DNA of 64,000 nt, from the NCBI GenBank assembly GCA_023379805.1, contig JAMCPI010000016.1:8514-72513 (forward strand). Reading direction: 5' to 3'. The DNA comes from Nitrososphaerota archaeon. Its GTDB lineage: Archaea; Thermoproteota; Nitrososphaeria; Nitrososphaerales; JACPRH01. Below the pieces are notes generated by a model. The model did no database searches. It saw only the letters and a list, made by a program, of their open reading frames with translations, and was not told the DNA's origin. This document shows, piece by piece, positions 1 through 59,171 of this stretch. The stretch's first letter is position 1. Each line of letters opens with the position of its first letter. The translations under genes and the position numbers were made by a program.

Positions 1-1099
1 TTCGGCCGCTGTGCGAAGAAAAGTCGAAGCGTTTCACTTGGGATTTGACTTTCCGCGGCTTGCCGTTGATCAATGTTATTCCTTTCTCAAGAAGCGTTCG
101 ACCGGGGGTTCCGGGGACCTGGAACGATACTATACATATCGCGTTTTTAGGTCCACGGGCGATCTCGTTGTTGTAGAAGACGGCTGAACCACCTACAAGC
201 ATCCCTGCTGGAGCAATTATTACGCCCGGCTGCTTCACTACGCGTCTACGTTGGCTCCAGCTTGTCATCATATCGACGCTTCCTATGCTCTTCTTGTATA
301 AATCGGGATCTTTCAGGAATTCTTGGTGTCTCAGCAGCACATCGTTTGTCTTAAGGGCCATTCCATCCATTGCAACAGGGTAGGGAAAGTTCTTCTTTCT
401 GAGAACACATGCCATTTCCTGAGCTCTTCCTACAGCGAATGCTGGGACAAGGGCGGTTCCTCCCTGCTCAACAATCTCTTTCAAGAATGCAACGAACTCA
501 TCCTCAACCTTTTCACGCGGCGGATGATCAGCGGTCGCGTAGGTGCTCTCCGTGATGATTATGTCAGTTTCGTCCCAATCAGTGTCAGCTCCGCGCTGGA
601 GATTGGTTTCGTCGATCTTGAAATCACCTGTGTAAAGCACGCTCTTCTTGCCGTTATCGAGTCGAACAATCGAAGAGCCGGGTATGTGGCCCGCGTCAAG
701 GAATTTGACGGTGAACTCACCCATCTGAGACTCGTCTCCGGTCTTGAAGCCCTGCGCTCTCTTCATCATGTTCATTAGATCGAGATACTCAAAGGGGAGG
801 TAGAACCCTGATAGCTGAATAAAGTCCTCGATTAATAGGCGACTTAGCTCAAGAGTTAGGCTCGTGGAGTGCATCTCCACCCCGTTTCCGAGAAAGAATA
901 GCGGCGTAGCACCTGAATGATCAAGGTGTGAATGTGTGAGGACTATCCCATCTACATCCTTCGGTTTCACGTGAATTGGAAACGCAGGTTCTCTTCCAAC
1001 GAGCACCCCGAAGTCCAAAAGTACACGCGTTTTTTCTCCTTTAACCAGAAAAGCTGACCTGCCGACCTGTTGTGCGGCACCTAGAACAGAAACTTCCAT
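1..1099 (-). CDS. beta-CASP / metallo-beta-lactamase-fold RNA-processing nuclease (aCPSF2 or RNase J-like); 3' end runs off the window
   Basis: Not in the ORF track because there is no stop inside the window. My reverse-strand translation from ATG (complement of 1097-1099) reads MEVSVLGAAQQVGRSAFLVKGEKTRVLLDFG...DGIVLTHSHLDHSGATP (HxHxDH motif)...FLDAGHIPGSS...ITESTYA...ALVPAFAVGRAQE. It stays open to position 1. The listed + ORF 323..778 is its antisense shadow. Confidence 0.8.
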   Translation of the reverse strand, partial: MEVSVLGAAQQVGRSAFLVKGEKTRVLLDFGVLVGREPAFPIHVKPKDVDGIVLTHSHLDHSGATPLFFLGNGVEMHSTSLTLELSRLLIEDFIQLSGFYLPFEYLDLMNMMKRAQGFKTGDESQMGEFTVKFLDAGHIPGSSIVRLDNGKKSVLYTGDFKIDETNLQRGADTDWDETDIIITESTYATADHPPREKVEDEFVAFLKEIVEQGGTALVPAFAVGRAQEMACVLRKKNFPYPVAMDGMALKTNDVLLRHQEFLKDPDLYKKSIGSVDMMTSWSQRRRVVKQPGVIIAPAGMLVGGSAVFYNNEIARGPKNAICIVSFQVPGTPGRTLLEKGITLINGKPRKVKSQVKRFDFSSHSGR

Positions 1100-1175
1100 T
1101 CGTTTTTTACATCCTTACTGTATTTAGACGACAACCTTTTGAAGAACCATTCTTAAAGCTTTGCTAGTGTAACGA

Positions 1176-1877
1176 ATGGTACTCAAGATAATTCCCGAGT
1201 CCGTGGGCTTTAAAGATTATTCCTTAATCACAGGATTTCACGGAATAGGTGCAACTGGTTACTGGACGGTAAAATACCTCATCCAGAAGCTTAAAGCCGA
1301 GCGCATAGCGTTCGTAGACTCAAACATCATCGCACCTATTACCTCGACCGAAGAGGGCCGCATCACCACACCCTGTGAATTCTTCAAAAAAGACAACCTC
1401 ATCTTCTTCAAAGTTGAAGCACCGCCCTACAAACCGGAGGACATGGAGTTCTTCAGGGATCTAGCCGACTTTGTGATTAGAGCAGGCTTCAAGGAAGCGG
1501 CGTTGATCGGAGGATTAGACTCACGACTAAGACGAGACAACAGCACCTTCCGTCTCGTCAAGACTTCTGCATACAAAGCGGAGAAAGATCTAGTAAACGC
1601 TCCCATCCTCGAAGAAGGCCAGATCATCGTCGGGCCAGTCTCGGTCCTACTCAACAGGTTTGAAGCGTACAGCTTCCCAGCTTACTCGATACTCTCATAC
1701 GCCTCAGCTGAACGAGTTGATCCACGTGCAGCTGCAGCAGCAATAAACATACTGTCGAAACACTTCGGTTTCGAAGTCGATCTCCAACCTCTGCTAAAGG
1801 GTGCCGAGGTGCTGGAGTCTGAGATAGAGAAGCATGAAGCGCATCTGCGAAGACAAAGCGAAAACATCTACACTTAA
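1176..1877 (+). CDS. PAC2-family proteasome assembly chaperone (PbaB-like)
   Basis: 233 aa. ITGFHGIGATGYWTVKYLIQKL resembles the G-x-G-x-G N-terminal signature of archaeal PAC2/PbaB proteins (from memory). The C-terminus ...ENIYT fits a hydrophobic-Tyr-X (HbYX) proteasome-docking motif. Confidence 0.6.
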   Translation: MVLKIIPESVGFKDYSLITGFHGIGATGYWTVKYLIQKLKAERIAFVDSNIIAPITSTEEGRITTPCEFFKKDNLIFFKVEAPPYKPEDMEFFRDLADFVIRAGFKEAALIGGLDSRLRRDNSTFRLVKTSAYKAEKDLVNAPILEEGQIIVGPVSVLLNRFEAYSFPAYSILSYASAERVDPRAAAAAINILSKHFGFEVDLQPLLKGAEVLESEIEKHEAHLRRQSENIYT

Positions 1878-3475
1878 CAGGTGCTGCTGTCTCGAAGCGC
1901 TGAAACCGCGGCCTCAGCAGGATTATCCGCTGTATCGACGACGCGAACATCAATAACGCCTTTCAAACCCTCAGCTACCGCTCTAGAGTAAACGTCATTC
2001 ACATAAACCACAACACGCGAAAAACCATTTTGCCCAACAACCTTCCTAATCTCCTCGACGACTCCGGGTGAAGGCGTTACAGCGTCTGACCGAATAGCAC
2101 TCTCATACTGCGCCAACGGATAGATGTCTGAAATCTCAACTGGAACCAAGCCGTAAGGATGAATTAGGAAGCAGACCTGAACCCCCCGAGACGCCTCACC
2201 CAGCGCCTTCATAATAGAAGAGTACAATTGAGATTTAACGGATGGTCTGACATCCGGCTCAGGAAGCAGAAGCAGCATCGGCTTCCGAAACTCAACATCA
2301 TTAACAAGTCTATGACGGTGGCGTATAACCTGCGGCCGATTCTCATCAGCTGCATCAATGAAGAATACTCCTTTGGACTGGTAGAGCGCTGTCCCATCTT
2401 CAAGCAAATCGCGGTATTGCGTTAAGCTCTGGAAAGCCTCCCATAGCCTAGGGTGGCACCTTGCCTTTGATCCTAGATGCTCCCACAACCTGCCCTCCCT
2501 AATGGCCTCCTTGCACTCATCGACCGACTTCTTCAGCAGGTAGAGGTTGTGCACCGCTATGCTATCACACCGCTTATGGTCAGGCAGCCTCCTCAACTCA
2601 TCCAGTGATGTTGATGTGCAGACTGGGCAAGCGCAGCTCAGATAGGAGAGATCCTTCAGCTTAACCGTCCCCGTGTCAGTAAGATACCTGTCTTCACGAG
2701 CGTAAAGCATGTATGAAGCGGAGTCGAACAGGTCGCAGCCAAGCGCAACAGCTAATGGTATGGTAAGCGGGTGGCCTGCACCGAAAAGATGGAACGGCTG
2801 TTCCATCGGCAGATTCTTCTTAGCTGCAACAATCATCGAGGCCAATAGCCGGAACTTATAGGCCTCCATTACTACGGTTGGGCTGCCCAGAGCATACACA
2901 TCAAAACCCATCTTACCTGTCTCCCTAGCGGACTGCTCAACCAAATCAACATGAATACCACCTTGAACCGGTCCAGTCCAGAGCATGTCGCGCCGACTCT
3001 TCACAGCCAGCGTCCTTTTATCTCGCCGGAGCGTTTCCTCAACGGTCTCCTCAGCGTACCACCGCGCTGTCTGTGATCCGGTGGGTTTGTCAAGCACTAC
3101 CGCTATATCTGAGCCTATCTCTTCCTCAAAGTGAGCCATAGACTCCGGAGAAACATCCACGTCACCATACTCCAAGACCTGATAGCCGCCTGAGTCGGTC
3201 ATTACTGTGCCGTCAAAACCTATCGTTCGATGTATCCCGTTTTTCCTTACCGCCTCGCCTCCGCTCTTCATCGCGATGTAAGCGTTAGTCATAACTGCTG
3301 AGAAACCGATTTTGCGAATATAATCGGGTGGCACCGTTTGGTAAAGAGGGTGAATAACCGGTAACAGTGCCGGAGTCTCGACTACGCCGCTCTTGGTTCT
3401 TAGCCGCCCAATCCTCCCAGCTAAATCGGTAGCCTTGACCTCAAACACGTTGTTATACTCACCTTTAGACTCCAT
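1874..3475 (-). CDS. tgtA: archaeosine tRNA-guanine(15) transglycosylase
   Basis: 533 aa. The N-terminus FEVKATDLAGRIGRLRTKSGVVETPALLPVIHP and the zinc site SCACPVC are typical of archaeal TGT. It overlaps the convergent PAC2 gene end by 4 nt. Confidence 0.9.
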   Translation of the reverse strand: MESKGEYNNVFEVKATDLAGRIGRLRTKSGVVETPALLPVIHPLYQTVPPDYIRKIGFSAVMTNAYIAMKSGGEAVRKNGIHRTIGFDGTVMTDSGGYQVLEYGDVDVSPESMAHFEEEIGSDIAVVLDKPTGSQTARWYAEETVEETLRRDKRTLAVKSRRDMLWTGPVQGGIHVDLVEQSARETGKMGFDVYALGSPTVVMEAYKFRLLASMIVAAKKNLPMEQPFHLFGAGHPLTIPLAVALGCDLFDSASYMLYAREDRYLTDTGTVKLKDLSYLSCACPVCTSTSLDELRRLPDHKRCDSIAVHNLYLLKKSVDECKEAIREGRLWEHLGSKARCHPRLWEAFQSLTQYRDLLEDGTALYQSKGVFFIDAADENRPQVIRHRHRLVNDVEFRKPMLLLLPEPDVRPSVKSQLYSSIMKALGEASRGVQVCFLIHPYGLVPVEISDIYPLAQYESAIRSDAVTPSPGVVEEIRKVVGQNGFSRVVVYVNDVYSRAVAEGLKGVIDVRVVDTADNPAEAAVSALRDSSTC

Positions 3476-3561
3476 CTTTCTTCTTTTACTTGCTTGCTGC
3501 GGAACCTCCGCAGCTTACTTTTACACCTATCTGCCAGAGACGCTGCGCGTTATTACTGCGG

Positions 3562-3975
3562 CTACTTTTCTTTGACGAATTCGTTGTAGACCGCTTTAAC
3601 TCGGTCAGCCGCGAGCCCGCCTCCTTCGACTACGCCGTTCTCGGTGACCTTGATTTTATCCATGACTATGATTGCTCCGATGTCCTCTCTTACCTTGACG
3701 AGGCCTGGGAATACTCGGCTTAACCGTTCAGCAAGAGCCTTTAGATCAAAGGGCTGCTCAACAAGCCGTATCTCTTTAACGAAGGTTCCGTTGATCACTA
3801 CCTTGAACACCTTGTCACCTGCGCCGAAGAGATCGTCAAGTATAAGATTCAGTTTCTCATCAATGCCTTTTAGGTTCCCTTGATACTTCTTACCTTCAGA
3901 GGTCTCAACCTCAACTCTCCTACCGACAATAGAGACCATTTCATCACTAAATTTTCGAAAGACAGCTGAAGACAA
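3562..3975 (-). CDS. Sm-like (Lsm) RNA-binding protein with a C-terminal extension
   Basis: 137 aa. Sm1-like VEVETSEGKKYQGNLKGIDEKLNLILDD and Sm2-like VVINGTFVKEIRLVE, followed by an extra domain of about 65 aa. Confidence 0.6.
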   Translation of the reverse strand: MSSAVFRKFSDEMVSIVGRRVEVETSEGKKYQGNLKGIDEKLNLILDDLFGAGDKVFKVVINGTFVKEIRLVEQPFDLKALAERLSRVFPGLVKVREDIGAIIVMDKIKVTENGVVEGGGLAADRVKAVYNEFVKEK

Positions 3976-4083
3976 CTACAATTCACCTTTTACACCTATC
4001 TCTCCAAAGAATAGGGTTAAAAAGTATGTGCCACCCCCGCCGAGAATCTGCAGAACTTCACTCAGCTACCGGGTTATAGACAA

Positions 4084-5091
4084 TTAATCTTCAGAAGGAT
4101 ACTCAGATAGGAATGTCTGATCACTCTTCAACGGTCTAGCATTATAACCCAGCGTTCTCAGATGAGCTGCGAACTCATCGGCGAAGCCGTGAACCGTGTA
4201 TACCTTGTACGGATCGCACTGTCGAACCATCTCGACAAGATCGTTAAAGTCGCAGTGATCACTCAGGGTGAAGGCGTGGTCTACGCCTCGCATGTACTTG
4301 TAACGCGGTTCGACGCTCCAACCTGAGAAGGCAACCGAGACGGCGCCGTACCTCTGCTTTAACCTAGCCATTATCTGCCGGCTTCCGCCGTTCATCGGCG
4401 CAATCAGAATCCACGGCTTTCTTCCCAACTGCCCCTCCTCCGCAGCCTCGTCGAAGGGTTGCAGATCGCTTCGCAGCTTGACTCCTAGATCTATGTATGC
4501 TTGGTTTATCTCGAAGATGGATTTGTGGAGATAGATTGGATCCCAGCTTGAGAAGAGATCGGAGAGGATCTGCGCCTTCCCGAGTGTGTAACCCATTAAA
4601 ACAACAGGTATCCCCCTTGAAAACAAATCAGCTATCAGCTCGTTAACTCGCCGCATTGTCTCTTCAACTGGTGGGAAAACATAGTTGCGCTTCCCGAAGG
4701 TGCTCTCCATAATCAGAGTACCACATTTAACTGGTTGGCATCCCCGCATGAAGCTTCGCGACTTTAACGCAAAGTCGCCCGTGTAATACACATCGTCGCC
4801 TATCAGAAGGCCTCGTGAACCGAGAATATGGCCCGACTCTATCATCTTGAGATTGTTAGGCATCTGCTCTGCAATGTTGATTGTGACGCCTCGCTTAGCA
4901 GCTAGGAGTGCCGTCTCCTTGGTTGCAAGAATACTTCCTGTGGAGCCTATGCCCTTCATATGGTCGATATGAGCGTGAGATATGAAGGTGAAATCAGCCT
5001 TACCTACTCTATCCGGATCTAAGCTGATTTTCCGACCGTCATACTCGATGGTGATACCGTTGCTTGAAGTAATTGTCATCGGAGCCTTCAA
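4084..5091 (-). CDS. metallo-beta-lactamase-fold (beta-CASP-like) nuclease/hydrolase
   Basis: 335 aa. FISHAHIDHMKG (HxHxDH), ESGHILGS, and a C-terminal ...TLSDHCDFNDL...VYTVHG as in short beta-CASP exonucleases. Confidence 0.7.
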   Translation of the reverse strand: MKAPMTITSSNGITIEYDGRKISLDPDRVGKADFTFISHAHIDHMKGIGSTGSILATKETALLAAKRGVTINIAEQMPNNLKMIESGHILGSRGLLIGDDVYYTGDFALKSRSFMRGCQPVKCGTLIMESTFGKRNYVFPPVEETMRRVNELIADLFSRGIPVVLMGYTLGKAQILSDLFSSWDPIYLHKSIFEINQAYIDLGVKLRSDLQPFDEAAEEGQLGRKPWILIAPMNGGSRQIMARLKQRYGAVSVAFSGWSVEPRYKYMRGVDHAFTLSDHCDFNDLVEMVRQCDPYKVYTVHGFADEFAAHLRTLGYNARPLKSDQTFLSEYPSED

Positions 5092-39485: not shown

Positions 39486-41762
39486 TTACTTCTTCCGCAT
39501 CGCCAGTACTGCTGCGCCAATGATTGCGATGACAGCTATTCCGACTGCCGCATAAGTTACTTCTGAGGGTAGTCCTGTTGTCTGTGTTACTTGTGATGTT
39601 ACTGTTGAGGTTTGAGCTGGTTGTGTTGAGGTGATTGTGGTTGCTTTTGTGGCAGTGGTTACGCTTGTTGTCGCTGACGTGGTTGTTACTGTGGTTGTTG
39701 CGGTGGTGCTTGAAGTGGCTGTAGTCGTAGAGGTTGCAGTGGTGGTTGTGACTAATGTGGAGACCGATGTTGTAGTTACTGTTGAGGTGATTGCTTGGCC
39801 TGCCGGTTTGTCGGATAGTCCTATGGCCATTAGTGTGCCAGGGACTGTAGGTTGTCCACCTAGTCCGTATCTTGGGTCTCCTGCCGCTATTGCTTGTGGC
39901 CCGGTCATTAGGAATATTTTTGAGTCTCCTGCTGAGTCTTTGCCTATAGTTGTTCCGATTACTACTGGTGCACCGATATTCATTTCTCTGAGCATCTTAC
40001 CGTTGTCTTTGTCGAGGAACCTTACTTTGCCGTCTGTGAAGCCTGAGAAGACCATTCCTCCTGTGACGACGATAGCTGCTCTCTGATGACTGTAGCTGTA
40101 GAACCATGACCATTTCACTTTCCCTGTAGCTATGTCTCTAGCGACGATTGTCGAGTTCGCGATTGGATAGTTTCTTACAGTGAAGAGATTCCCGCCCTGA
40201 ATATAGGGACTCTCCAGCAGTACAGTTCTCTGTAGAGCATCTTCGTAGAGGATTATTGCCTGCCCGTCAGGATCGTAGGACATGTCTGTTGCGAAGATAC
40301 CATTGGTCCAAGCTGGATACACTTCAGCCGGTAATGTGTGGTGTTCTCCCTTTTCACCCGGTTTGGTGGCGGGCCAGCTTATCCAGTTCCATTCTCTCAT
40401 GTCGTGGTAGCTCTTAGGATCGGGCATGTATGTCCTGATGCCGTCGGGCGGAGGTTTAGCTGCAGCTGCGCCTACCTGTCCCCTAGCAACTTGGTCTGGT
40501 ATTACATCTACCTTGTACTTTGGCTTACCTGAAGCTGCATCCATTACGTAGAAGATGCCTTCCTTGCAGCCCTTCACGTAGACTTTGCCTAATGCCTTGC
40601 TGTCGATTAGCATGCCGCTCCAGTTACAGTCATAGTCATACGGATCATGTGGGAATGGCTGTAGCCACCAGACTCGTTTGCCCTGATTCAGGTCAATGGC
40701 CATTATAGTGCTACCGTAGAGTCTTGGTCCAGGTGCGAGAGACATGTTTGAGTATGGTCCTTGGTTGCCAGTGCTTGTGTATAGTATACCTGTATCCTCA
40801 TCTACTACTGGTTGGCCCCAGTTGGCTGTTACTCCAGCCCATTTGCTTATTGGCTCTCCTGGTAATCCCCAGTCCCATTCGAGTCCCTTCTGGTTCACAG
40901 CTGCTACTTCGCTGCACGGAACATCTCTGAAGTAGCCTATGCTGCATTCTTGCAGTGCCCAGTCTTTTACTGGAGTGTCATACGGTGGAGATTCGAAGAC
41001 TCGCCAGAGGACGTTGTAAGGTGGATCCATGCTGATGCCCATTGTGACGTGTCGGGCATCGGGTGCGGTGAGTGTGCTGTGCATCGTGCCGGGTAAGATG
41101 TAGATGAACATATGGCCTTTTTCATAAGTCATCAGGTTCGCTGAGTTAGCTAGACCCATGTTCCCCATGTATTGATACAGGTTACCAGGTATGTTTGCGC
41201 AGAGGTCGTTAACGCGGAACTTCTCCTTTCCGTTATTAGCGTCGATGCCGTAGAAGTCGCATGCAATACCATAATCCAGTATTGCATCTCCGCCTGCCCA
41301 GTATCTGATGCCGTGTGAATGAATAGGCATTGCTACTTTCACGGGTAGCCGCTTCTTCACTGCCTCTATGTCGATGGTGTAGTCATAGACCCATTGCTGT
41401 TTACCGGTCTTTGCGTCTACCGCGTATGTTCTCTTGTAATTAGTCATTACGTAGACTTTGCCGTTATGGACGATTGGTGGGGTGGACGATCCTTCTCCCG
41501 GGTTAGCTGCCTGCATACCTGCAGGTGCTAGTGACTTGCCTCCGATAGGGAAGATCCACTTTACTTCTAGATTGTTGACGTTGTCCTTGTTGATCTGTGT
41601 CTGTGGGCTGTAGTTCTGAGCCCATGAGTTACCGTTGACATTCTGCCAGTCTATGCCATCATTTGCTAGTGGTGCTGCGAATGCTAGTGTTGGTGTGAAT
41701 GTGCTGAATGCCAGTATTACAAGTATTATACAGTTAGTTATCCAATATTTGCTTGATAACAT
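39486..41762 (-). CDS. secreted PQQ-repeat beta-propeller (quinoprotein-dehydrogenase-like) protein with a Thr-rich stalk and C-terminal TM anchor
   Basis: 758 aa. Signal-like N-terminus, repeated A-x-D-x-x-T/S-G-K-x-x-W units (AVDAKTGKQQW, VMDAASGKPKY, ARDIATGKVKW, FLDKDNGKML), about 90 aa of T/S/A/V low complexity, then GLPSEVTYAAVGIAVIAIIGAAVLAMRKK. Confidence 0.8.
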   Translation of the reverse strand: MLSSKYWITNCIILVILAFSTFTPTLAFAAPLANDGIDWQNVNGNSWAQNYSPQTQINKDNVNNLEVKWIFPIGGKSLAPAGMQAANPGEGSSTPPIVHNGKVYVMTNYKRTYAVDAKTGKQQWVYDYTIDIEAVKKRLPVKVAMPIHSHGIRYWAGGDAILDYGIACDFYGIDANNGKEKFRVNDLCANIPGNLYQYMGNMGLANSANLMTYEKGHMFIYILPGTMHSTLTAPDARHVTMGISMDPPYNVLWRVFESPPYDTPVKDWALQECSIGYFRDVPCSEVAAVNQKGLEWDWGLPGEPISKWAGVTANWGQPVVDEDTGILYTSTGNQGPYSNMSLAPGPRLYGSTIMAIDLNQGKRVWWLQPFPHDPYDYDCNWSGMLIDSKALGKVYVKGCKEGIFYVMDAASGKPKYKVDVIPDQVARGQVGAAAAKPPPDGIRTYMPDPKSYHDMREWNWISWPATKPGEKGEHHTLPAEVYPAWTNGIFATDMSYDPDGQAIILYEDALQRTVLLESPYIQGGNLFTVRNYPIANSTIVARDIATGKVKWSWFYSYSHQRAAIVVTGGMVFSGFTDGKVRFLDKDNGKMLREMNIGAPVVIGTTIGKDSAGDSKIFLMTGPQAIAAGDPRYGLGGQPTVPGTLMAIGLSDKPAGQAITSTVTTTSVSTLVTTTTATSTTTATSSTTATTTVTTTSATTSVTTATKATTITSTQPAQTSTVTSQVTQTTGLPSEVTYAAVGIAVIAIIGAAVLAMRKK

Positions 41763-41953: not shown

Positions 41954-43750
41954 CTACTTCTTTCGCATTACTAGTACTGCTGCTGCGGCAATAGCTATTA
42001 CAGCTACTCCGATTGCTGCGTAGGTTACTTCTGAGGGTAGTCCTGATGTTTCGGTTACTGATGAGACTACTGTGGTTGTTTGAGTTTGTGCCGGTTGTGT
42101 TGATGTTACTGTGGTGGTGGCTGTGGTTGCGGATGTGGTCGTCAGTACGGATGTGGCGATACTTGTGCTTGTCTGGGTGGTTGTCATAGTTGTTGTCTTT
42201 GCTTGGGAGCTTGCTCGTAGACCTATGCCAACTAACGCTCCACCTGGACTGGCAGTGCTTGGTTTTGCACCTGCATTGACAGCTACGACTATCATTGAGT
42301 TACCGGCGCTATCTTTGCCTACTGAAGGTCCTGTGGGTATTTGGGAGCCGAGATTGAGCTTGTATATCTGTTTGCCTGTGTCTTTATCGAGGAAGGCCAG
42401 GTTTCCATCGTAAGATACTATGACCATGCCGCCTGTGACTGGTCTTTGTGTTCCGCTCATGCGTCGCTCGGATCCGGGGAATGGGCCCCAGGTCCATTTG
42501 ACTTTACCAGTGAGGGCGTCTTGTGCGTAGAATGTGCCGTTTTCTGATGCGCCTGTTTTAACTATCATCCATGAGGCTTTTCCTTGAGATGAGGCTAATT
42601 CGAGATCCCAGGTTTTCATGTATTCTGGTGTTAGGTACGCAAAGGAGTAGATTGTGCCTGCCCCGTCGGTTGATGATTCTCCGACCATGCCGCTGTGACC
42701 TAAAGGTAGGAGGACATTATTTTTGTCACATTTTGCACAGTTTCTTCCCACATCGGTCATCTCCATTTTTCCTGCTCCTGCCCACGGTAGAGTAAGCATC
42801 TCTTTGAAGCCTTCCCAGTTACCTGTGACGTGGTTGTACGTTGGTAAGCGATCTTTGTCGAGAACTGGTGCGGGATCGTAAATTATGTTTGCTCTGAACT
42901 TTTCACCGTATAGCGAAGTGATTGGGTCAAATCTCCTCAAAGGTTTGCCTGTGGCAGCATCGATGTAATTCAGAATTCCGTCTTTGCACGCTTTTACTAG
43001 AGCCTTTCCAGTGGTTCCTAGTCCTGGAACTTCTATAAGCATGGGGGAGTAGAATCCACAGTCCATGTCGTATGGGTCGTGCGGATATTCTGAGACCCAC
43101 CACTTCATTTTACCCTTACTCAAGTCGAAGGCTACTAGGCTGCTGCCGTATAGATTTGGTCCTGGCCTAGAAGTGAGGTTTGAGTAGGGACTCTGGTTGC
43201 CGGTCGCTATGTACATTGTATCGGTGTCCTCGTCAATTATTGGCATACCCCAAGTTGCACTTACACCGTTGAGTTTGTGCGGAGGTTGTCCAGGTACTGC
43301 TTGCCAGTCGTATTCAAGCAGGGATTTGTCGCGCTGCGCCACTGTTTGACAAGGAGTGGTCACGAAGTAGCCAATATCACAGTTTTCTAGCGCCCAATCC
43401 TTGGTAGGCTTGTCCTGAGGTGGTTGTAAGAATACTCTCCAGACTATTTGCTTTGTATCCATATCCATGCCGCCAATCCAGTTTCTGAATGAGGAAAAGT
43501 CACCCTGTAGGCTGCCGTATAGACCCACGATGTACTGATTCCCTTTATCCCAAGTAGCTATTTCGGCTGTACCGATGCTTCCTATTAGTGCGTTAGGTGC
43601 CTGTTTGTAGATACTGCCAGGAACATTCAAACAGAGATCAGTGATCCTGAAATTCTCTTTACCTGTATCGGCGTTTATTGAGTAGAAGTCGCAAGCTATT
43701 CCACCTATCAGTATAGCGTTTCCTTTTTCCCAATATCGGAAGGGTTCTGT
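41954..43750 (-). pseudogene. 5'-truncated paralog of the PQQ-repeat beta-propeller protein
   Basis: The frame is open upstream of the track's TTG start. My translation reads *TEPFRYWEKGNAILIGGIACDFYSINADTGKENFRITDLCLNVPG..., which aligns with residues ~152 onward of the 758-aa neighbour (IRYWAGGDAILDYGIACDFYGIDANNGKEKFRVNDLCANIPG). The signal peptide and about 150 aa are missing. The in-frame stop (43751-43753) lies inside the transposon end. Confidence 0.7.
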
Positions 43751-46594: not shown

Positions 46595-46895
46595 ATTTCT
46601 GAATCTTACCCCTAATTCGCCGCTCCCATTCGTCGTACCCAACTACGCCTTTCTCTTCCAGAAGCTCGACTAATGAGGTTAACATAGTGTCGTGCATCCG
46701 TACCTCTTGCTTAACTTGATCAGTCTCGCTTGCGATGCCCTCAACTTTGAAAGAGGGTAGAAGGATGCCCTTATCGGATAGGTGAGCAATTACGATGTTT
46801 CGGATAACTTCTGAATCGCCATCGCCTAGCGTTCCTTTCAGCTCGTCTATGACCTTCCAAACGCCTTCTGGAAGTGATACTAGTGCGCGCCTCAT
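46560..46895 (-). CDS. ribbon-helix-helix (CopG-like) protein
   Basis: I place the start at the internal ATG (MRRALVSLPEGVWKVIDELKGTLGDGDSEVIRNIVIAHL is an RHH pattern). That ATG overlaps the transposase TGA as ATGA (46892-46895). The 3' end overlaps the convergent nuclease-like gene by 35 nt. Confidence 0.55.
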   Translation of the reverse strand: MRRALVSLPEGVWKVIDELKGTLGDGDSEVIRNIVIAHLSDKGILLPSFKVEGIASETDQVKQEVRMHDTMLTSLVELLEEKGVVGYDEWERRIRGKIQKSSSGVSESSGQ

Positions 46896-47782
46896 GCTCT
46901 CACCACTAACTCCATAGCGTGTCCCGCTATCTTTTCTTGCTTTGTCTTTTCGGTTGTGGCTAGTCTTATCAGGTTCTTCCACCCTTTCACTTCTATGCCT
47001 GCCGCTTGAGCTGGCGTCATCTTTATGCTTTGGTGTTCGCGGCAGAAGTTATAGTGAGTGACCCAGCCATCTAAGAGAGCTTGAGCGGTTGCCTTGCTCT
47101 TTAATCCTCTCATCGGCTTTGTTCTATCCTTAAGTGATCCGTGTAACCTCTCTACTATGTTGTTTGTCTCTCTCGCACGTATGCCTACACGCTTGACTAG
47201 CTCAGGCTGACTAACCTTGTTTGGATTACCGAAGGCAAACCTAAAGGCGTCATCGTAGGTGTTTGAGCCGTCCACAAAGATTGCGTTTGGTTGCGGGTTG
47301 CATCCTTCCTTAATACGCTTGAATTGCTGATATGTTTCGGCTAGGCTTCTACTGTTTGACAGGTATGATGCGACTAGAAAGCGGGTTTCCTCATCGATTG
47401 CCTCCCAGAACCACCTATTCGAGCCGTCAATCTTTACTACGGTTTCATCGTGGTGGATTTTGCCTGATACGGTGGGTGTTAAGGTTCTTGCGTATTCAGC
47501 TGCTAATGCGCTGAACTTCTGAACCCATATCCAGATTGTTCCCTGATTTACTTCTTCTCCTAAGATGTCTCTTAGCTGTCTCTGAACTTTGCGAACCGAT
47601 AATCCTTCAAAGTATAGGTTCATCGCGGCAACCACGATATGCTGGTTAACTCTCATTCGTGGTAATTCGTTTCCATTGTCAACAAAGTGGTGTCCACATT
47701 CTTTGCATAGGTAGCGCTGAAGGTTGCCCTTCATACCGTGCTTAACCACATCTGCGCTTTGGCAGAATTTGCAGGTCGCCAT
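46892..47782 (-). CDS. IS6-family DDE transposase with an N-terminal zinc-ribbon
   Basis: 296 aa. CKFCQS...QRYLCKECGHHF (zinc ribbon). DDE blocks HHDETVVKIDG...WFWEAID, IFVDGSNTYDDAF, ETNNIVERLHGSLKDRTKPMRGLKS, matching the IS6/IS26-type pattern (from memory). Confidence 0.85.
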   Translation of the reverse strand: MATCKFCQSADVVKHGMKGNLQRYLCKECGHHFVDNGNELPRMRVNQHIVVAAMNLYFEGLSVRKVQRQLRDILGEEVNQGTIWIWVQKFSALAAEYARTLTPTVSGKIHHDETVVKIDGSNRWFWEAIDEETRFLVASYLSNSRSLAETYQQFKRIKEGCNPQPNAIFVDGSNTYDDAFRFAFGNPNKVSQPELVKRVGIRARETNNIVERLHGSLKDRTKPMRGLKSKATAQALLDGWVTHYNFCREHQSIKMTPAQAAGIEVKGWKNLIRLATTEKTKQEKIAGHAMELVVRA

Positions 47783-50231: not shown

Positions 50232-50948
50232 GATGTTGTTAGGATAAGCCGTTGAGTAGCACCCAGTTGTAGGTGGCTGTGAATGCTTCTAGGAATATCG
50301 TTATGGATTGTATAGTTGAGCGGTAGGGGAAGTTGTTGTAGAAGCGTTTTAGCTTGGCCTTGAGGATGCCGAACCATCTTTCGATGCGGTTCCTCATACC
50401 AAAGGTTTCATGCCTGAACTAACTGGTCTCATGCCTATACTCTAGGCCAAGCCTCTTGAATGCTTCCGGATACCAAGGCCCCTTATCCACTAGGAACAAA
50501 GGCTTGTTGGCGCAGTACTGGAGAACCTGTTTGAGGAAGAGTTCAGAGTCGAGAATGCTTCTAGCAAAGCTGCATCTGACTGCTAGGATTTCCTTAGAAT
50601 CAACATCTCGGGCTGCCCAGATGAATATCTGCTGCCCAACCAGCTTAGTCTTGGTCTCATCCACAGCAACCGCTCTTCGACTCTTCTTCTCAGGCTCAGG
50701 GAAAGCCTTCCTCAACGCAATGAACGCATCCCTAACACTGACGTAAGAGATGCTTCCACCCATCATCTCAGAAGCCTTTCGATACGACAGGCCTGCAAAG
50801 CACAACATAGCAGCCAATACCTTGCTCTCAGCAGGAACCTTATTCCTCTGAAACACACCTGACTCCCTAACCCTACTAACCACCACCTCAAGAGCACACA
50901 TAGGATTACAATACGCACAGAACCGTAAAACCCTATCCTAACAACATC
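50232..50948. mobile_element. IS6-like insertion sequence (717 bp) with 14-bp perfect TIRs and an 8-bp target-site duplication
   Basis: TIRs are gatgttgttaggat (50232-50245) and atcctaacaacatc (50935-50948). The flanking direct repeat is tggggcga (50224-50231 and 50949-50956). Confidence 0.8.
50239..50901 (-). pseudogene. IS6-family DDE transposase interrupted by an in-frame TAG inside a 21-nt tandem duplication
   Basis: The track ORF ends ...GLEYRHETS*. The same frame continues FRHETFGMRNRIERWFGILKAKLKRFYNNFPYRSTIQSITIFLEAFTATYNWVLLNGLS* (my translation). DDE blocks are AVDETKTKL, LFLVDKGPWY, NRIERWF. The duplicated tcatgcct lies at 50408 and 50429. Confidence 0.8.
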
Positions 50949-54132: not shown

Positions 54133-54249
54133 ACCCCAGAATATTTTGTCACCATATTTATTACTTTCTGAATAGCACAAACCCCAACAACAAAATCTCT
54201 AAAATCGCAGTGAAGACCACGCGCAGACACGCACTTTTTCAGCAAAGAT

Positions 54250-54420
54250 ACCATGGAGTCTACACTAAGAAACACCTAGTCTCGACGAATAATCCCTGAT
54301 AAAAAAACAATGGGTGAAAAGAAGCTGCTGGCTCAAGCATAATTTTCAAAATCACCCTACCATCTGATGACTACCCCCGCTCCATAGGCGACCATCAAAC
54401 TCGATATCAAACTTGATGTA
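54250..54420 (+). repeat. module A: accatggAgtct - gtctcgac - A7 - gctgct - GATATC-centred 26-bp palindrome
   Basis: ccatgg 54251, gtctcgac 54279, A-run 54301-54307, gctgct 54324, palindrome catcaaactcgatatcaaacttgatg 54393-54418. Confidence 0.7.
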
Positions 54421-55536
54421 TTCATTTTTCCTAAACCTTTTCCTACACCTCAACAAACCACTTCCACCCGCTAATTAGCGAAAGTCAACTACAACCTTAT
54501 TCTAGATAACACCAGCATTATCAATTCAACAAATAAGAAAAACGAACCAGCTGCTAACCGCAATACCATCTGTCTTTTTACAAAGTCACCAACGATGAAG
54601 ACTATGGCAACAAATCACTCCTAGAATCGTTTCAATAGCGATTAACCTAAGTCTCGATATACACATACTGTTTGTGTTACTCACCTGACTTAGAACCACT
54701 CCGCGCATTAACCCTATGAAATAATAGGTGTACCCTGCTAGCGGAGTAAAGAACGCCCAACTCACTTTACTCCGACCGTATTAAGCCCGTCTCAAGCATG
54801 CACCCAAAGTCAGCCCGCCTATTTTTTCAAGTTTTTTGGTCGACACCGCTTGTTACAACTTACATTCACTCGTATATGAATAGTAAGATTATACATACTT
54901 ATCATATGCTGTGATTTGACGCTTGTTTTGCTGCAGAATACTATCACTTGAAAACTGAACCTAGTGGCTCAGATCTCTATTGACCGCGAGTATAGCTGAA
55001 CTTCGCTTCTATAATCGGACGGGTGGATGTTGACTACCTGAAGTATTACTCGATCAGGGGTAAACTCTCCTTACTCGATGGCTGCGCGGTCGGTGTTATG
55101 TATAGGCGATCAGCGCCCTATCTGGTCCACAAATCACTTTGACGCAGTTTTCTGCTGGATGAGGGTTGTTTTTTTAATGCTGTTAGGTTTGGTCAGCTCC
55201 TTTGTTCTTGTTTAGTTAGTGTGCCGCCTTTTTTCGTCGGATCCTGTAGAATCGATAAGTCTGGTAGATCAAGGTGGTTTCCATTTTTTCAGGGTTGGTT
55301 TTTGGTCGTTGATGTAAAAGCATCATTGGCGGTATGGCAATATTTGTTTGGCATAGGATGGTGATTGCTTGCCGCTATTGCTAGCTAATGATGGTTTTCT
55401 ATACATAAGGGGTTTAGCGACTTTGGAAGTTCGTTGATGTTTTTGTATCAATATCATCTTCCTGCTTTACTTGAGCGGATTCGTGCACATGTGGGTTTTT
55501 TACGCGTAATTTGTTGGCTTCTTTTTACAGTGTGAC

Positions 55537-55712
55537 ACCATGGGGTCTTGGTTACAATTATGGCCGTCTCGACTGGTTGTTTTTTTGTTGTGGTTTACTG
55601 TTGCTGCTTGACGCGGTGGACTTTGCTTTTACAGGATGTCGCCTCTTGTCATATTTAGTGGTTGGATAGCTTGTAGTAGGTTTTGTCAAGTTTGATATCG
55701 AACTTGATGTTG
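55537..55712 (+). repeat. module B: accatggGgtct - gtctcgac - T7 - gctgct - GATATC-centred 26-bp palindrome
   Basis: ccatgg 55538, gtctcgac 55566, T-run 55580-55586, gctgct 55603, palindrome tgtcaagtttgatatcgaacttgatg 55684-55709. The anchors are in the same order as in module A with near-identical spacing. Confidence 0.7.
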
Positions 55713-55723
55713 GTATGTTGGGC

Positions 55724-56017
55724 TTAACGTATTATTGATATTGCAAAGGCGAGTAGAAGCAGCACCCATCCAACGATGAGGATAATCTTTATGATCTGTT
55801 TGCCTATTGAGACCAGTTCAAGGACTAAGTAGAACGCCGTCAGTGTGATGAGTAGTGTAATTGCATCTGAGTAGAGATTGGCGAGCTGAGGATCTGCTTT
55901 GAACACTGTTTCGTTGAGAATTGTTTGTAGAAACGTTCGAATTAGGTCATAGATTGTTCTTAGAAATGTCAGCAATAGTGTAAGTATGTCAGTTTGGGCT
56001 GTAAAAACTGGAAACAA
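55724..56017 (-). CDS. hypothetical small membrane protein
   Basis: 97 aa with 2-3 hydrophobic helices. Confidence 0.4.
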   Translation of the reverse strand: MFPVFTAQTDILTLLLTFLRTIYDLIRTFLQTILNETVFKADPQLANLYSDAITLLITLTAFYLVLELVSIGKQIIKIILIVGWVLLLLAFAISIIR

Positions 56018-56149: not shown

Positions 56150-56380
56150 CTAGAGTGAGTTAGGCCTGGATGCATATGCCCAGATTGAGACGGCTAGTAT
56201 AGTTATGAGGGAACTCGCCACTCCCGCTACTAACGCGCCGATTATCTGGTTGTTTACATTCATTAGGAACGGTAACGCGGTTACTGCTAGCTCGCTAAGT
56301 GTGGGATACGACAGGTATCCGATGAAGCCGAGCGCGAAACCGGCGAACCAGATGCCCATTAACGCCAAGTATCGACCCAT
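56150..56380 (-). CDS. hypothetical small membrane protein
   Basis: 76 aa with 2-3 hydrophobic helices. Confidence 0.4.
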   Translation of the reverse strand: MGRYLALMGIWFAGFALGFIGYLSYPTLSELAVTALPFLMNVNNQIIGALVAGVASSLITILAVSIWAYASRPNSL

Positions 56381-56528: not shown

Positions 56529-57530
56529 GTGTCAGTCTCAAGAAAGAATGGTGTTGTTCCTTTGAGGGAGAGTCAAACTGAGTTGAAGGAGACTGAGCGA
56601 AGGTTCACTCGCGAGGTTCTTTCCACAGTAGTGCGAAAGGTGGATGAGGTTCAGGAGCTTCTTCCCACAAGGCTTCCGAATGGTGGTTTCATCTACAAAG
56701 AGATAGATGACTTGAATCTATGTGAGGACAGCCAAGTTTTGCTTAACCATATGTTTGAGCAAGGCTATCTTGAGAAGCGTCCCTCTGAAACTATGCTTGT
56801 TTGCCCCGTCTGTCATGAAGGAAATGTTGTTCCGATACTAAAATGCAAGTCCTGCGGCGCTCTGGCCATAAAGCGTGAACGTCTTATTGAGCACAAGGCT
56901 GGTGGGCATATCCATCCGGAGTCTTCGTTTAAGATTCAAGAGGACAAGATTGTCTGCCCTAGCTGTAGCAGATCGCTGAATTCAACTGAGTGGCGAACTC
57001 TTGGCGCTTGGTTCGTCTGCGCTGAATGCGGTGAACGGCAGGCGCAAATGGCTGCTGAGTTCAAATGCTTGAAGGACAATAATCTCTTCACACCTGTGCT
57101 GGGTGAATTCGTGATGCTTTACAAGTATACCGTGACTGAAAAGGCTAGATCGCTCCTAGGTTTTGATGAGACATCAATTGCTGAAGGTATTGTTAAGGTG
57201 CTTTCGAAGGAAGGTGCGGTTGATCGGAATTTTGCAATCAAGGGGAAAAGCGGTGTCGAGCATGTGTTTGACATCGCGGTTAAGACCAGTGGTAAACATC
57301 TTCTAATCGACGTCGCCTTCTCAAACCAGCCTATCGGAGATGCGGTCGTCCTTGCGAGTTTCGCTAAGACCTTCGAGGTTAAAGGTGAAGACTACCTGCT
57401 CATCATCTGGCCAGAACTCTCTAAATCCGCTCAGAACCTTGTCGATTTCTATAAAATTAACATTATTCAGGGAACAAACCTTGAGTCTATGACTAAAGAA
57501 TTGGAAAAATACGTCGAAGAGCACAAGTAA
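56529..57530 (+). CDS. double zinc-ribbon protein with a C-terminal alpha/beta domain (KaiC-associated output-domain-like)
   Basis: 333 aa. CPVCHEGNVVPILKCKSCG and CPSCSRS...(14 aa)...CAECG. The C-terminal part is IKGKSGVEHVFDIAVKTSGKHLLIDVAF.... It is followed closely by the KaiC-like gene. Confidence 0.6.
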   Translation: MSVSRKNGVVPLRESQTELKETERRFTREVLSTVVRKVDEVQELLPTRLPNGGFIYKEIDDLNLCEDSQVLLNHMFEQGYLEKRPSETMLVCPVCHEGNVVPILKCKSCGALAIKRERLIEHKAGGHIHPESSFKIQEDKIVCPSCSRSLNSTEWRTLGAWFVCAECGERQAQMAAEFKCLKDNNLFTPVLGEFVMLYKYTVTEKARSLLGFDETSIAEGIVKVLSKEGAVDRNFAIKGKSGVEHVFDIAVKTSGKHLLIDVAFSNQPIGDAVVLASFAKTFEVKGEDYLLIIWPELSKSAQNLVDFYKINIIQGTNLESMTKELEKYVEEHK

Positions 57531-57635
57531 GTGGAAAATCTGCGCATCAAACCTCTTTGACTTAACTGTCTACTGGGTGTAACACTGAGGTTATACAGCC
57601 GCTTCAACATGCACAATATTCACGCGTAAAAACAG

Positions 57636-58379
57636 GTGATGAAGGTGCCGAATGAGACTAAACAGGATTCTTCGCATGCGGGCCCAATGCTATTCACGGG
57701 TCTTGAAACGCTAGACCGTATGTTAGGGGGAATCCCTGAAGGTAGTGTCGTAGTGCTGTCAGGTAAACCTGGATCAGGCTTCGACATCTTTGCGCAGCAG
57801 GTGCTTTACAGCCGTGTAACCACCGATGGAGTAAAAGCGCTCTACTTTACGATTGAGCATCCCCCAGAGGATGTTGCTGCTGAAATGTTTTCGCGCAACT
57901 GGAACGTTGAGCAGCTCATGGAGAAAAAGAAATGGGAATTTTTTGACGCGTCCACAATTAGGTCCAATATTCGTAAAGGTGTAGCTAGCCCAAAAGTTCT
58001 GCTCAGCGCGCTCGACGTTTATCATAAGAAGCTTGAGCGGAACGTTTGGTCTGCAATGGACACCTTCTCATACTACCTTATGCATTATGATTTGCAGGAG
58101 GTTATGGGTTATGTGGATGACATTGTTTCAAAGGCGCGTGAAGTCGGTGGGCTACATTTACTTCTAACCGTGGAAGGAATGCTTGACACACAGACAATCA
58201 CCAGCTTAGCCTATCTGACAGATGGTCTATGGACATTCACGTTAGAGTCAGAGCGGGCCGAACCAGTGGGAACGATAAGAATCGAGAAGCTCAGAAGAGC
58301 TGATTACGTGCCTCGCATCATCTCTTACCGAATCTTCGATGAAGGATTATCTATCGAAACCTCCACTCGCATTTCATAG
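57636..58379 (+). CDS. KaiC/RecA-superfamily protein with a degenerate Walker A motif
   Basis: 247 aa. FTGLETLDRMLGGIPEGSVVVLSGKPGSGFDIFAQQ matches the KaiC-like N-terminus, but the P-loop reads GKPGSGFD instead of GxPGxGKT/S. The Walker-B-like stretch is VWSAMDTFS. Confidence 0.75.
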   Translation: MMKVPNETKQDSSHAGPMLFTGLETLDRMLGGIPEGSVVVLSGKPGSGFDIFAQQVLYSRVTTDGVKALYFTIEHPPEDVAAEMFSRNWNVEQLMEKKKWEFFDASTIRSNIRKGVASPKVLLSALDVYHKKLERNVWSAMDTFSYYLMHYDLQEVMGYVDDIVSKAREVGGLHLLLTVEGMLDTQTITSLAYLTDGLWTFTLESERAEPVGTIRIEKLRRADYVPRIISYRIFDEGLSIETSTRIS

Positions 58380-59171
58380 TTGGGCAAAAATTGGTGTGGA
58401 TACCATGGTGTATACGTTAGAAAAGTGGAGTTCTTTGACAGTGATTCTGGTTTGGTGAAAATTGTTTTTCTCGGAACCGGTGATGCTTTCAACACCAACG
58501 GTCGTCTCTTCACATCAGTGCTGGTGGTAAGCAGTTTCTTCAGAATCCTGCTGGACTGCGGGCCACACGTAATATATGCGCTTGAACGACTAGGATATCC
58601 CATCAACTCTGTTACGCACGTTCTTGTCACTCACCTACACGGGGATCACGCAGCAGGTCTCCCCTTCCTACAACTGAATATTACTCACAGGGATCGTGGC
58701 GAGATTACTGTAGTGGGACCGAGTGGCATAGAGGTTTTCATCAAAGAAACTTATTCGCGCTTCTTTAAGATGTCAGACGAGGCACCGTTTAAGTTTGGGC
58801 AACCCAGTGACGGGGATCTGCCGTTTAATCTCCACCACATCGAAGGTTCACACCCTGTCGTAGCCTATATCTACCGGCTTGAAGTTGATGGTAGATCGAT
58901 AGTTTACACCGGAGATACTGCTAAGGTTGATCTGTCCAAGTTTGCGCGAGGCGCAGATCTTCTGATACATGAAGCATCATCGCTTTCACCTAGAGCCGGA
59001 GAGTTCGGTCACTCAACACCCTTCGAAGCGGCTGAGACTGCTGCTTCTTCGAAAGTAGGACAGTTGGCTCTAGTTCATGCTCCAGACTTTCCCCTAGACA
59101 CAGAGAAATCGGTAAAATCGATCTTTCCAGAAACCCTGTTTCCGAAGGATTTTGACAGTATCGAGATATAA
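58380..59171 (+). CDS. metallo-beta-lactamase-fold hydrolase (RNase Z/ElaC-like size)
   Basis: VKIVFLGTGDAFN, VTHLHGDHAAG (HxHxDH), IEGSHP, YTGDT, LIHEAS. The true start is probably the GTG at 58455 (or the adjacent TTG at 58452) rather than the TTG at 58380. Confidence 0.75.
   Translation: MGKNWCGYHGVYVRKVEFFDSDSGLVKIVFLGTGDAFNTNGRLFTSVLVVSSFFRILLDCGPHVIYALERLGYPINSVTHVLVTHLHGDHAAGLPFLQLNITHRDRGEITVVGPSGIEVFIKETYSRFFKMSDEAPFKFGQPSDGDLPFNLHHIEGSHPVVAYIYRLEVDGRSIVYTGDTAKVDLSKFARGADLLIHEASSLSPRAGEFGHSTPFEAAETAASSKVGQLALVHAPDFPLDTEKSVKSIFPETLFPKDFDSIEI

Follow-up and report, generated by a model that had tools for sequence, protein, structure and literature searches.

A 64,000-nucleotide stretch of contig JAMCPI010000016.1 from a Nitrososphaerota archaeon, here called the window, carries a row of three genes that raises two questions: do they work together, and what is left for a KaiC domain to do once its P-loop has lost the lysine? 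The row begins with the gene for a 333-amino-acid (aa) zinc-ribbon protein at 56529–57530 (+), continues after 105 nt with that for a 247-aa KaiC-like protein at 57636–58379 (+), and ends with an open reading frame (ORF) for a metallo-β-lactamase (MBL) hydrolase at 58380–59171 (+). An earlier note on this DNA, made from the sequence alone, had described this layout and implied a three-gene unit. The ORF list confirmed the coordinates, the shared + strand, and the spacing of the first two genes; in the tblastn neighbor table, only these first two are consistently linked. The explanation that we favor, and consider reasonably probable, is a conserved two-gene thaumarchaeal module formed by a TackOD1 protein and a lysine-less KaiC, non-enzymatic and regulatory, linked to pili in some relatives, with the MBL gene as a bystander.

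The KaiC-like protein and its Phe-Asp P-loop

The 247-aa protein has the KaiC/RecA identity that the earlier note had read from its sequence. Pfam KaiC (PF06745) matched at 86.9 bits against a cutoff of 26.6 (E 1.7e-24), and an AlphaFold model with a predicted local distance difference test (pLDDT) score of 85.3 was matched by Foldseek to KaiC CI and PH0284, at template modeling (TM) scores of ~0.7–0.77 and E ~1e-14. NCBI labels the protein "RAD55 family ATPase," a generic name.

The P-loop departs from that of KaiC. GKPGSGFD stands where KaiC has GT(P/S)GTGKT, and the phmmer alignment to KaiC chains in the PDB was gapless here. A phmmer search with the C-terminal half against the PDB gave nothing useful and was replaced by an hhalign comparison of the family profile with the KaiC CI domain, whose numbering here agrees with literature positions. 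In that alignment, F49 corresponds to K52, D50 to T53, E74 to E77, H75 to E78, D142 to the Walker B residue D145, and K218/R220 to K224/R226. The Walker A pattern GxxxxGK[ST] is therefore broken at two residues, with Phe in place of Lys and Asp in place of Thr, and the glutamate that is second of the catalytic pair has gone too (E78 to H75). Kept are the Walker B D142, the first Glu (E74), and the inter-subunit, trans-acting pair K218/R220. Across the family alignment, the E74 site is Asp in divergent members, the next site is His or Arg, and D142 is invariant. Since both alignments are gapless, an alternative register of the P-loop is ruled out, and the replacement of Lys and Ser/Thr by GSGFD was read correctly in the earlier note.

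Because the Walker A Lys-Thr is a conserved Phe-Asp, the protein would be expected neither to bind nor to hydrolyze ATP canonically, and we infer from these residues that it is catalytically inactive. A precedent comes from SaArlH, in which the K33A variant lost ATP binding, autophosphorylation, and ArlI binding altogether (10.1101/2021.03.19.436134); by analogy, the 247-aa protein should be unable to use ATP in the canonical way. The earlier suggestion of a scaffold or sensor that does without canonical ATP turnover is a reasonable one, as the loss of Lys and Thr is conserved in the family.

This loss is old and maintained. PGSGFD[I/M/L]F[A/S]QQ is common to 21 homolog clusters with identities down to 42%, every one of them drawn from metagenomes or metagenome-assembled genomes (MAGs) of Nitrososphaerota, with Asp50 invariant and Phe49 present in 20 of the 21. 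The ratio of nonsynonymous to synonymous substitution rates (dN/dS) is 0.07 for the KaiC-like gene against the relative in locus L029, whose protein is 84% identical; with the motif kept down to 42% identity, this rules out a pseudogene or decaying ATPase. We also assembled 30 loci with a Phe-Asp KaiC, the window included, using scans of genomes and of metagenomes together with look-ups of identical proteins, and tabulated their neighbors by tblastn. PGSGFD occurs in 26 of them, and the remaining four read GSGVD, GSGHD, GSGFE, and GSGFDLF. An exhaustive profile search over 1.84 billion representatives returned 1101 proteins at E <= 1e-10. The Walker A Lys is absent from 43 of the 50 best representative clusters and from 70 of the best 150 representatives, where it is replaced by F, A, H, N, S, Y, and others. 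Among these 70 Lys-less sequences, the Ser/Thr site is Asp or Glu in 39, and 66 are single-domain proteins. Two more sequences read GEPGSGFD, one a homolog from a Heimdallarchaeote (L004) and the other encoded in a related locus from a metagenome (L045), so the clade with the Phe-Asp signature reaches the Asgard archaea. Motif conservation, selection, the profile-search counts, and the AlphaFold/Foldseek match together place the protein, as judged from sequence and model, in a broad, old KaiC-like clade without a canonical nucleotide site.

The TackOD1 protein and its linkage to the KaiC-like gene

The upstream gene (56529–57530, +) encodes a member of the TackOD1 family of the arCOG06883 type. 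Pfam TackOD1 (PF18551) matched residues 56–186 at 66.8 bits against a cutoff of 32 (E 2.3e-18), covering model positions 39–172 of 188. NCBI calls an identical protein at 322 aa, and the true start may lie 11 codons downstream. The AlphaFold model (pLDDT 79.8) suggests a disordered N-terminus, a small helical or winged-helix-like region (~28–91), a Cys-rich double zinc-ribbon core (~92–202), and a PD-(D/E)xK nuclease-like domain (~214–332). The earlier note had seen two zinc ribbons followed by a C-terminal alpha/beta domain, which agrees with the four CxxC motifs and the model, and its guess of a TackOD1-like or restriction-endonuclease-like match proved apt on both counts, the second at the level of the predicted fold. 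The gene is under purifying selection, with a dN/dS of 0.09 against L029.

The alignment of the zinc-ribbon core shows an invariant RERLIEHKAGGHIHPE motif, and the residues C92/C95/C106/C109/C143/C146/C164/C167/C180 and H122/H127/H129 are invariant. The published TackOD1 core has eleven conserved Cys, arranged as five CxxC and one HxxC (PMC5847659). Compared by motif count rather than exact register, the window family has four conserved CxxC plus C180 and H122/H127/H129, and the window protein looks like a reduced Cys variant.

The modeled C-terminal domain has the topology alpha-beta-beta-beta-alpha-beta-alpha-beta-alpha, within which the PD-(D/E)xK core alpha-beta-beta-beta-alpha-beta is present. 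All top Foldseek matches in the PDB were PD-(D/E)xK nucleases: AF1548, NucS, Cdn1, VC1899, Can2, Bax1, MspJI, the R2 endonuclease domain, and Hjc, with 1y88, 2vld, 9u49, 1xmx, 7bdv, 8gy8, 4f0p, and 2eo0 among the entries. G239, S241, G242, H245, F247, D248, D261, and K280 are invariant. The catalytic D...(D/E)-x-K signature is incomplete, as D248 and D261 are invariant and the site two residues on is Ala, Glu, Phe, or Val; the window protein reads D261-V-A where the canonical Lys would stand. The alignment also shows no alpha1 Glu of the nuclease motif in this domain. Because the Lys two residues past the second acidic residue is absent, nuclease activity is uncertain, although the invariant K280 on the next helix might substitute. 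REC-TackOD1 response regulators total 318 aa (PMC5847659 supplement), and the stand-alone forms in the published table measure 330–336 aa (PMC5847659). Since PF18551 spans only residues 56–186 and REC-TackOD1 totals 318 aa, the nuclease-like domain is an addition in the stand-alone form of TackOD1.

Of the 30 loci, 24 have a TackOD1 gene next to the KaiC variant; it occurs there in either of two orientations, and the surrounding genes are of several kinds. The pair is co-directional in the window, L001, L002, L022–L026, L029–L031, L035–L037, L046, and L049, and a shorter, 241-aa TackOD1 is convergent in L027, L028, and L038–L043. The loci without TackOD1 are contig-end cases (L003, L044, L047, and L048) and the stand-alone genes of the Heimdall type (L004 and L045). 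Three loci (L001, L002, and L023) carry the pair inside a type IV pilus (T4P) locus, between a Peptidase_A24 prepilin peptidase and a T2SSE ATPase with two T2SSF proteins, in the order Peptidase_A24 ... TackOD1-KaiC-(200 aa)-T2SSE-T2SSF x2. This embedding agrees with published work, in which arCOG06883 double zinc-ribbon proteins lie mostly in thaumarchaeal T4P loci and KaiC-family proteins are associated with T4P (PMC4858521). The window itself departs from it: no PilB, TadC, or prepilin-peptidase gene was found in its 64 kb. Just upstream of the prepilin peptidase, L001 (3658–3978) and L002 (585–935) also carry an Hjc-family (PF01870) gene, a second nuclease-fold protein in these pair-bearing pilus loci.

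In the window's clade, a small gene accompanies the pair. In the window it lies at 56150–56380 (−), divergent to the TackOD1 gene, and encodes a predicted membrane protein of 76 aa without a Pfam match. By tblastn, it stands immediately upstream of the pair in the window, L022, L024–L026, and L029–L031, is always divergent from TackOD1 in this non-T4P clade, and travels with the pair through a block inversion relative to the GalT/CBS and GAPDH/PGK flanks. We regard the 76-aa protein as a candidate third member of the module, in the window clade only.

The MBL gene and competing explanations

The third gene encodes an MBL-fold hydrolase, as the earlier note had it: Lactamase_B_2 matched at 69.3 bits against a cutoff of 27 (E 4.6e-19), and the motifs THLHGDH, YTGDT, LIHEAS, GHST, and LVH supply the metal ligands. 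The claim that it follows the KaiC-like gene without any gap did not survive. At full extent the ORF opens at a TTG at 58380 and spans 263 aa; because homologs measure 237–239 aa, the in-frame GTG at 58455 is the likely start, giving a gene at 58455–59171 (+) of ~238 aa and a 75-nt gap after the KaiC stop. The equivalent gap in L031 is 126 nt. The absence of a gap was thus an artifact of ORF extension.

The MBL is not a true RNase Z. It falls below the NCBIfam RNase Z cutoffs (122 bits against 293 for TIGR02651, 119 against 252 for NF000801), and its alignment to B. subtilis RNase Z (1y44) comes in two stretches that skip chain residues ~104–201, the flexible arm. Its full-length PDB matches are the short MBLs 6kns and 1zkp. 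The family is large, with 2432 proteins at E <= 1e-10 against 21 clusters for the KaiC and 12 for TackOD1, and ~100 thaumarchaeal clusters of 235–242 aa and at least 39% identity are among the matches listed. GAPDH and PGK recur as neighbors among relatives, and distant homologs have others; independent contexts were seen in L033, L034, L115, L116, and L117. In L116 (5001–10720), a homolog of 41% identity lies beside a cyclic nucleotide monophosphate (cNMP)-binding protein, an adenylate/guanylate cyclase, and a cNMP-binding sulfate transporter, a context that hints at some short-MBL family members as cyclic-nucleotide phosphodiesterases.

An MBL gene follows the pair only in the window, L029, L031, and L035, four close relatives. 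By tblastn, it does not follow the pair in L022, L024, L025, or L037, nor in any T4P-embedded or convergent locus. The two are apart in MAG JACPCU01, where contig 9 carries the pair (L001) and contig 7 the MBL gene (L033), between a Usp gene and PGK-GAPDH, and L117 has an MBL-78aa-GAPDH-PGK-HDAC block with no pair upstream. The earlier note had let its cluster stand or fall with synteny in other archaea; that synteny holds for the TackOD1 and KaiC genes (24 loci) and fails for the MBL gene, so the pairing of an inactivated KaiC with an MBL enzyme is confined to four closely related loci. On synteny and the corrected start, we rejected a three-gene operon. Because of its separate contexts, its family size, and the few shared loci, we conclude that the MBL is independent of the pair, probably as a housekeeping gene of the phosphodiesterase type: it is an RNase Z-like bystander outside the module that abuts the pair in one lineage by chance. 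As a side observation, L117 carries a D5_N/DUF5906 primase-helicase and a DUF559 gene upstream of MBL-GAPDH-PGK (244–4749), an arrangement suggestive of a mobile element integrated at the site that holds the TackOD1/KaiC pair in the window lineage.

How the pair might work can be pictured from these pieces. The module would comprise two genes, in the window clade perhaps plus the upstream 76-aa membrane protein, with the inactive KaiC as a nucleotide-independent oligomeric scaffold or adaptor. We propose an adaptor because the glycine-rich Phe-Asp loop is the most conserved segment and the Lys/Arg finger is kept; ring-type subunit contacts are plausible because this finger and the Walker B Asp are both retained, and Asp50 may stand in for the missing phosphate or Mg site. 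The KaiC-like protein would bind the TackOD1 protein physically, and the latter would be the effector or sensor half. Parallels for such a partnership may be seen in the haloarchaeal fusions of HalOD1 to an inactivated KaiC (iKaiC) and in the REC-TackOD1 regulators, where the receiver domain is regulatory. Where the pair lies between the prepilin peptidase and PilB/TadC genes, the complex would most likely modulate the PilB-type T4P assembly ATPase, by analogy with the KaiC-like ArlH, which docks on ArlI in the archaellum. In the window lineage, the pair would have left the pilus locus and landed beside the conserved MBL-78aa-GAPDH-PGK block. Tightly linked and under strong selection, the pair offers a small, clean model of the part that catalytically inactive KaiC domains play in the signaling network proposed for archaeal KaiC proteins and could reveal what the uncharacterized TackOD1 output domain does; its T4P-embedded relatives offer a concrete target for testing, the PilB-type ATPase. 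The analysis also corrects a tempting mis-grouping: the dead KaiC and the MBL do not make up a new system.

Several points weigh against a non-enzymatic, pilus-derived pair. The GxxGSG backbone, the Walker B Asp, and the first Glu are conserved, and the pocket could still bind a ligand, which could be a nucleotide held in a non-canonical mode or another phosphate compound. D248, D261, and K280 are kept in the TackOD1 protein, which could then be an active nuclease with a relocated Lys, making the module enzymatic. The T4P placement is seen in only 3 of ~12 distinct lineages with usable flanks, and the 64-kb window holds no T4P gene; in this lineage, a link to pili may be an ancestral trait, a secondary one, or of no relevance. 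Gene adjacency is the sole link from which we draw a TackOD1-KaiC interaction. Finally, the MBL gene of the window clade is co-directional and 75–126 nt away, and it may be co-transcribed there.

Other explanations read the same genes differently. The pair might handle DNA, with a Rad55- or Shu-like non-catalytic RecA paralog joined to a zinc-ribbon/winged-helix/PD-(D/E)xK nuclease in recombination, repair, or the processing of T4P-imported DNA. The RecA-superfamily fold with its inter-subunit residues kept would suit this role, as would the partner's zinc ribbons, its nuclease fold closest to AF1548, NucS, Bax1, and Hjc, the Hjc-family gene of the T4P-embedded L001 and L002, and the NCBI name "RAD55 family ATPase," though generic. 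Yet the neighborhoods show no consistent repair genes, the nuclease motif lacks both its canonical (D/E)xK lysine and its alpha1 Glu, the protein matches KaiC rather than RadA or Rad51 in sequence and in fold, and TackOD1 is documented as a response-regulator output domain (PMC5847659), which points to signaling; we hold a DNA-handling role to be fairly unlikely. Quite unlikely in our estimate, and proposed tentatively, is a variant of the regulatory module in which the Phe-Asp loop is not simply dead: the invariant Asp50, sitting in the phosphate/Mg site, would engage Lys218/Arg220 of the neighboring subunit and lock a KaiC-type ring permanently in a "nucleotide-bound-like" state. Its obligate TackOD1 partner, rich in Zn and Cys and bearing a nuclease-fold domain, would switch the ring by a means such as sensing redox state or metals or binding nucleic acids. 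If true, this would be a nucleotide-free archaeal KaiC signaling hub controlling pilus assembly or another target.

Two further explanations bring in the MBL. In a three-gene cassette, the MBL, acting as a nuclease or as a phosphodiesterase of cyclic nucleotides, would be under the control of the dead KaiC and TackOD1 or be targeted by them, and the three would form a new signaling or RNA-processing system. The genes are indeed co-directional with short gaps in the window, L029, L031, and L035; the MBL has all its metal-binding motifs and is weakly similar to cyclic-nucleotide phosphodiesterases and Apyc1, and one distant homolog is the neighbor of cNMP-binding and cyclase genes in L116. Such a cassette is nevertheless very improbable given that the pair lacks an adjoining MBL in 20 of the 24 pair-bearing loci, that pair and MBL occupy separate contigs in JACPCU01, that the MBL-78aa-GAPDH-PGK block occurs without the pair in L117, that the MBL family dwarfs those of the pair, and that the gapless coupling disappears with the likely MBL start. 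An anti-virus defense pair or trio, made of a nuclease-like effector, an NTPase-like sensor, and the MBL, is hardly credible and was rejected. Its domain mix is superficially defense-like (a Can2/Cdn1-like nuclease fold, a P-loop-derived protein, and a weakly Apyc1-like MBL), and insertion sequence (IS)-like ORFs lie elsewhere in the window. Against it, none of the three proteins had a PADLOC match at E <= 0.01, the genes keep a stable, syntenic place in the chromosome among housekeeping genes from one genome to the next, and strong purifying selection and vertical-looking divergence accompany a distribution that is neither patchy nor island-like.

Surrounding DNA and comparison with known systems

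Upstream of the pair, between a CBS/helix-turn-helix gene and the small membrane-protein genes, lies a spacer of ~1.5 kb (54181–55723) with no ORF of at least 60 aa on either strand and a lowered GC content of ~0.42. ORF-poor spacers of 1.2–1.5 kb occupy the equivalent place in L029, L031, L022, and L024. The spacer core at 55299–55571 (tightest at 55342–55414) is conserved at the DNA level, with 68.6% identity over 274 nt to L029 and 82% over 73 nt to L031, though the L031 proteins are only ~60% identical. All six of its frames are full of stops, and its + strand forms a long predicted hairpin (z = −1.7) with three compensatory pairs among three sequences. No Rfam family reached its gathering score in the spacer; the core is possibly an unannotated non-coding RNA or regulatory element. 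A match to the sR2 C/D-box small nucleolar RNA at 55841–55891 (+), at 21.5 bits against a gathering score of 42 (E 0.067), is probably due to chance; it overlaps, on the opposite strand, a 97-aa predicted membrane protein gene without a Pfam match (55724–56017, −). A gene stands at the equivalent position in L031 (again 97 aa) and in both L029 and L030 (100 aa).

Farther upstream, a 296-aa transposase-like ORF with Zn-finger/DDE-like features (46892–47782, −) and a transposase-like 160-aa fragment (50419–50901, −), ~6–10 kb before the pair, suggest IS elements or their remnants. Two paralogous large secreted proteins, at 39486–41762 and 41954–43630 (both −), have Thr-rich linkers and a C-terminal membrane anchor; by eye, they are probably beta-propellers resembling pyrroloquinoline quinone-dependent dehydrogenases.

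The window pair resembles several described systems without matching any of them in full. The literature that the earlier note had drawn on, on KaiC-like signaling hubs with output domains, is real (Makarova 2017, as cited in PMC5847659). There, iKaiC is a recognized inactivated KaiC domain fused to the output domain HalOD1 in haloarchaea, and TackOD1 occurs as REC-TackOD1, that is, as a response-regulator output domain (PMC5847659, citing Makarova 2017 for iKaiC). In the sense in which PMC5847659 uses the term, the window protein shows the features of iKaiC: KaiC homology in a KaiC/RecA fold, a disrupted nucleotide-binding motif, and a linked output domain (TackOD1, in 24 loci) that, like HalOD1, also serves response regulators. 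Unlike HalOD1-iKaiC, it is a stand-alone protein of 247 aa rather than a fusion, carries the Phe-Asp signature, and is thaumarchaeal with Heimdallarchaeote relatives.

ArlH (FlaH) shares the single KaiC-like domain of ~230–250 aa and, with L001, L002, and L023, a gene position beside a PilB/ArlI-type ATPase and TadC/ArlJ-type proteins; the NCBIfam ArlH model (NF052589) aligns with the window protein over its full length at E 9.5e-14. In ArlH, however, Walker A is intact, and the protein binds ATP, autophosphorylates, and depends on ATP for its contact with ArlI, whereas the window protein lacks the Lys and Thr. Membership in ArlH or the archaellum is ruled out by a score of 51.6 bits against a cutoff of 215, by the absence of arl genes from the window, and by the lost Walker A. 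Circadian KaiC is more distant still: it has tandem CI-CII domains of ~500 aa against a single 247-aa domain here, the circ_KaiC models of NCBIfam scored 35.9–56.7 bits against cutoffs of 408–546, and no kaiB is found near the KaiC-like gene among the window ORFs.

The short MBL shares with RNase Z/ElaC the MBL fold, the HxHxDH motif, the downstream His and Asp ligands, and HST-type motifs, and its best PDB sequence matches are RNase Z. It differs in having no flexible arm of ~50–100 residues (the tRNA-binding exosite), in its length of ~238 aa against ~300–320, and in scoring well under the RNase Z cutoffs; 6kns and BA1088 (1zkp) are the short MBLs to which we liken it, and its tie to the KaiC/TackOD1 pair is confined to one narrow clade.

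The closest likeness of the 333-aa protein is to the TackOD1/arCOG06883 proteins of T4P loci: both match PF18551 above threshold, have a CxxC-rich core, are thaumarchaeal, and are of similar size (333 aa against 330–336), and some relatives of the window pair share the T4P-locus context (PMC4858521, PMC5847659). The window copy differs in lying outside any T4P locus and in its four CxxC plus one Cys against five CxxC plus HxxC, and its PD-(D/E)xK-like C-terminal domain is not mentioned in the available parts of the text of PMC4858521 and PMC5847659. Earlier publications already cover inactivated KaiC domains, the role of TackOD1 as an output domain of response regulators, and the presence of arCOG06883 in thaumarchaeal pilus loci; to PMC5847659 and PMC4858521, the window pair adds, modestly, its strict pairing, a Phe-Asp signature that reaches the Asgard archaea, and the nuclease-like domain of the TackOD1 protein.

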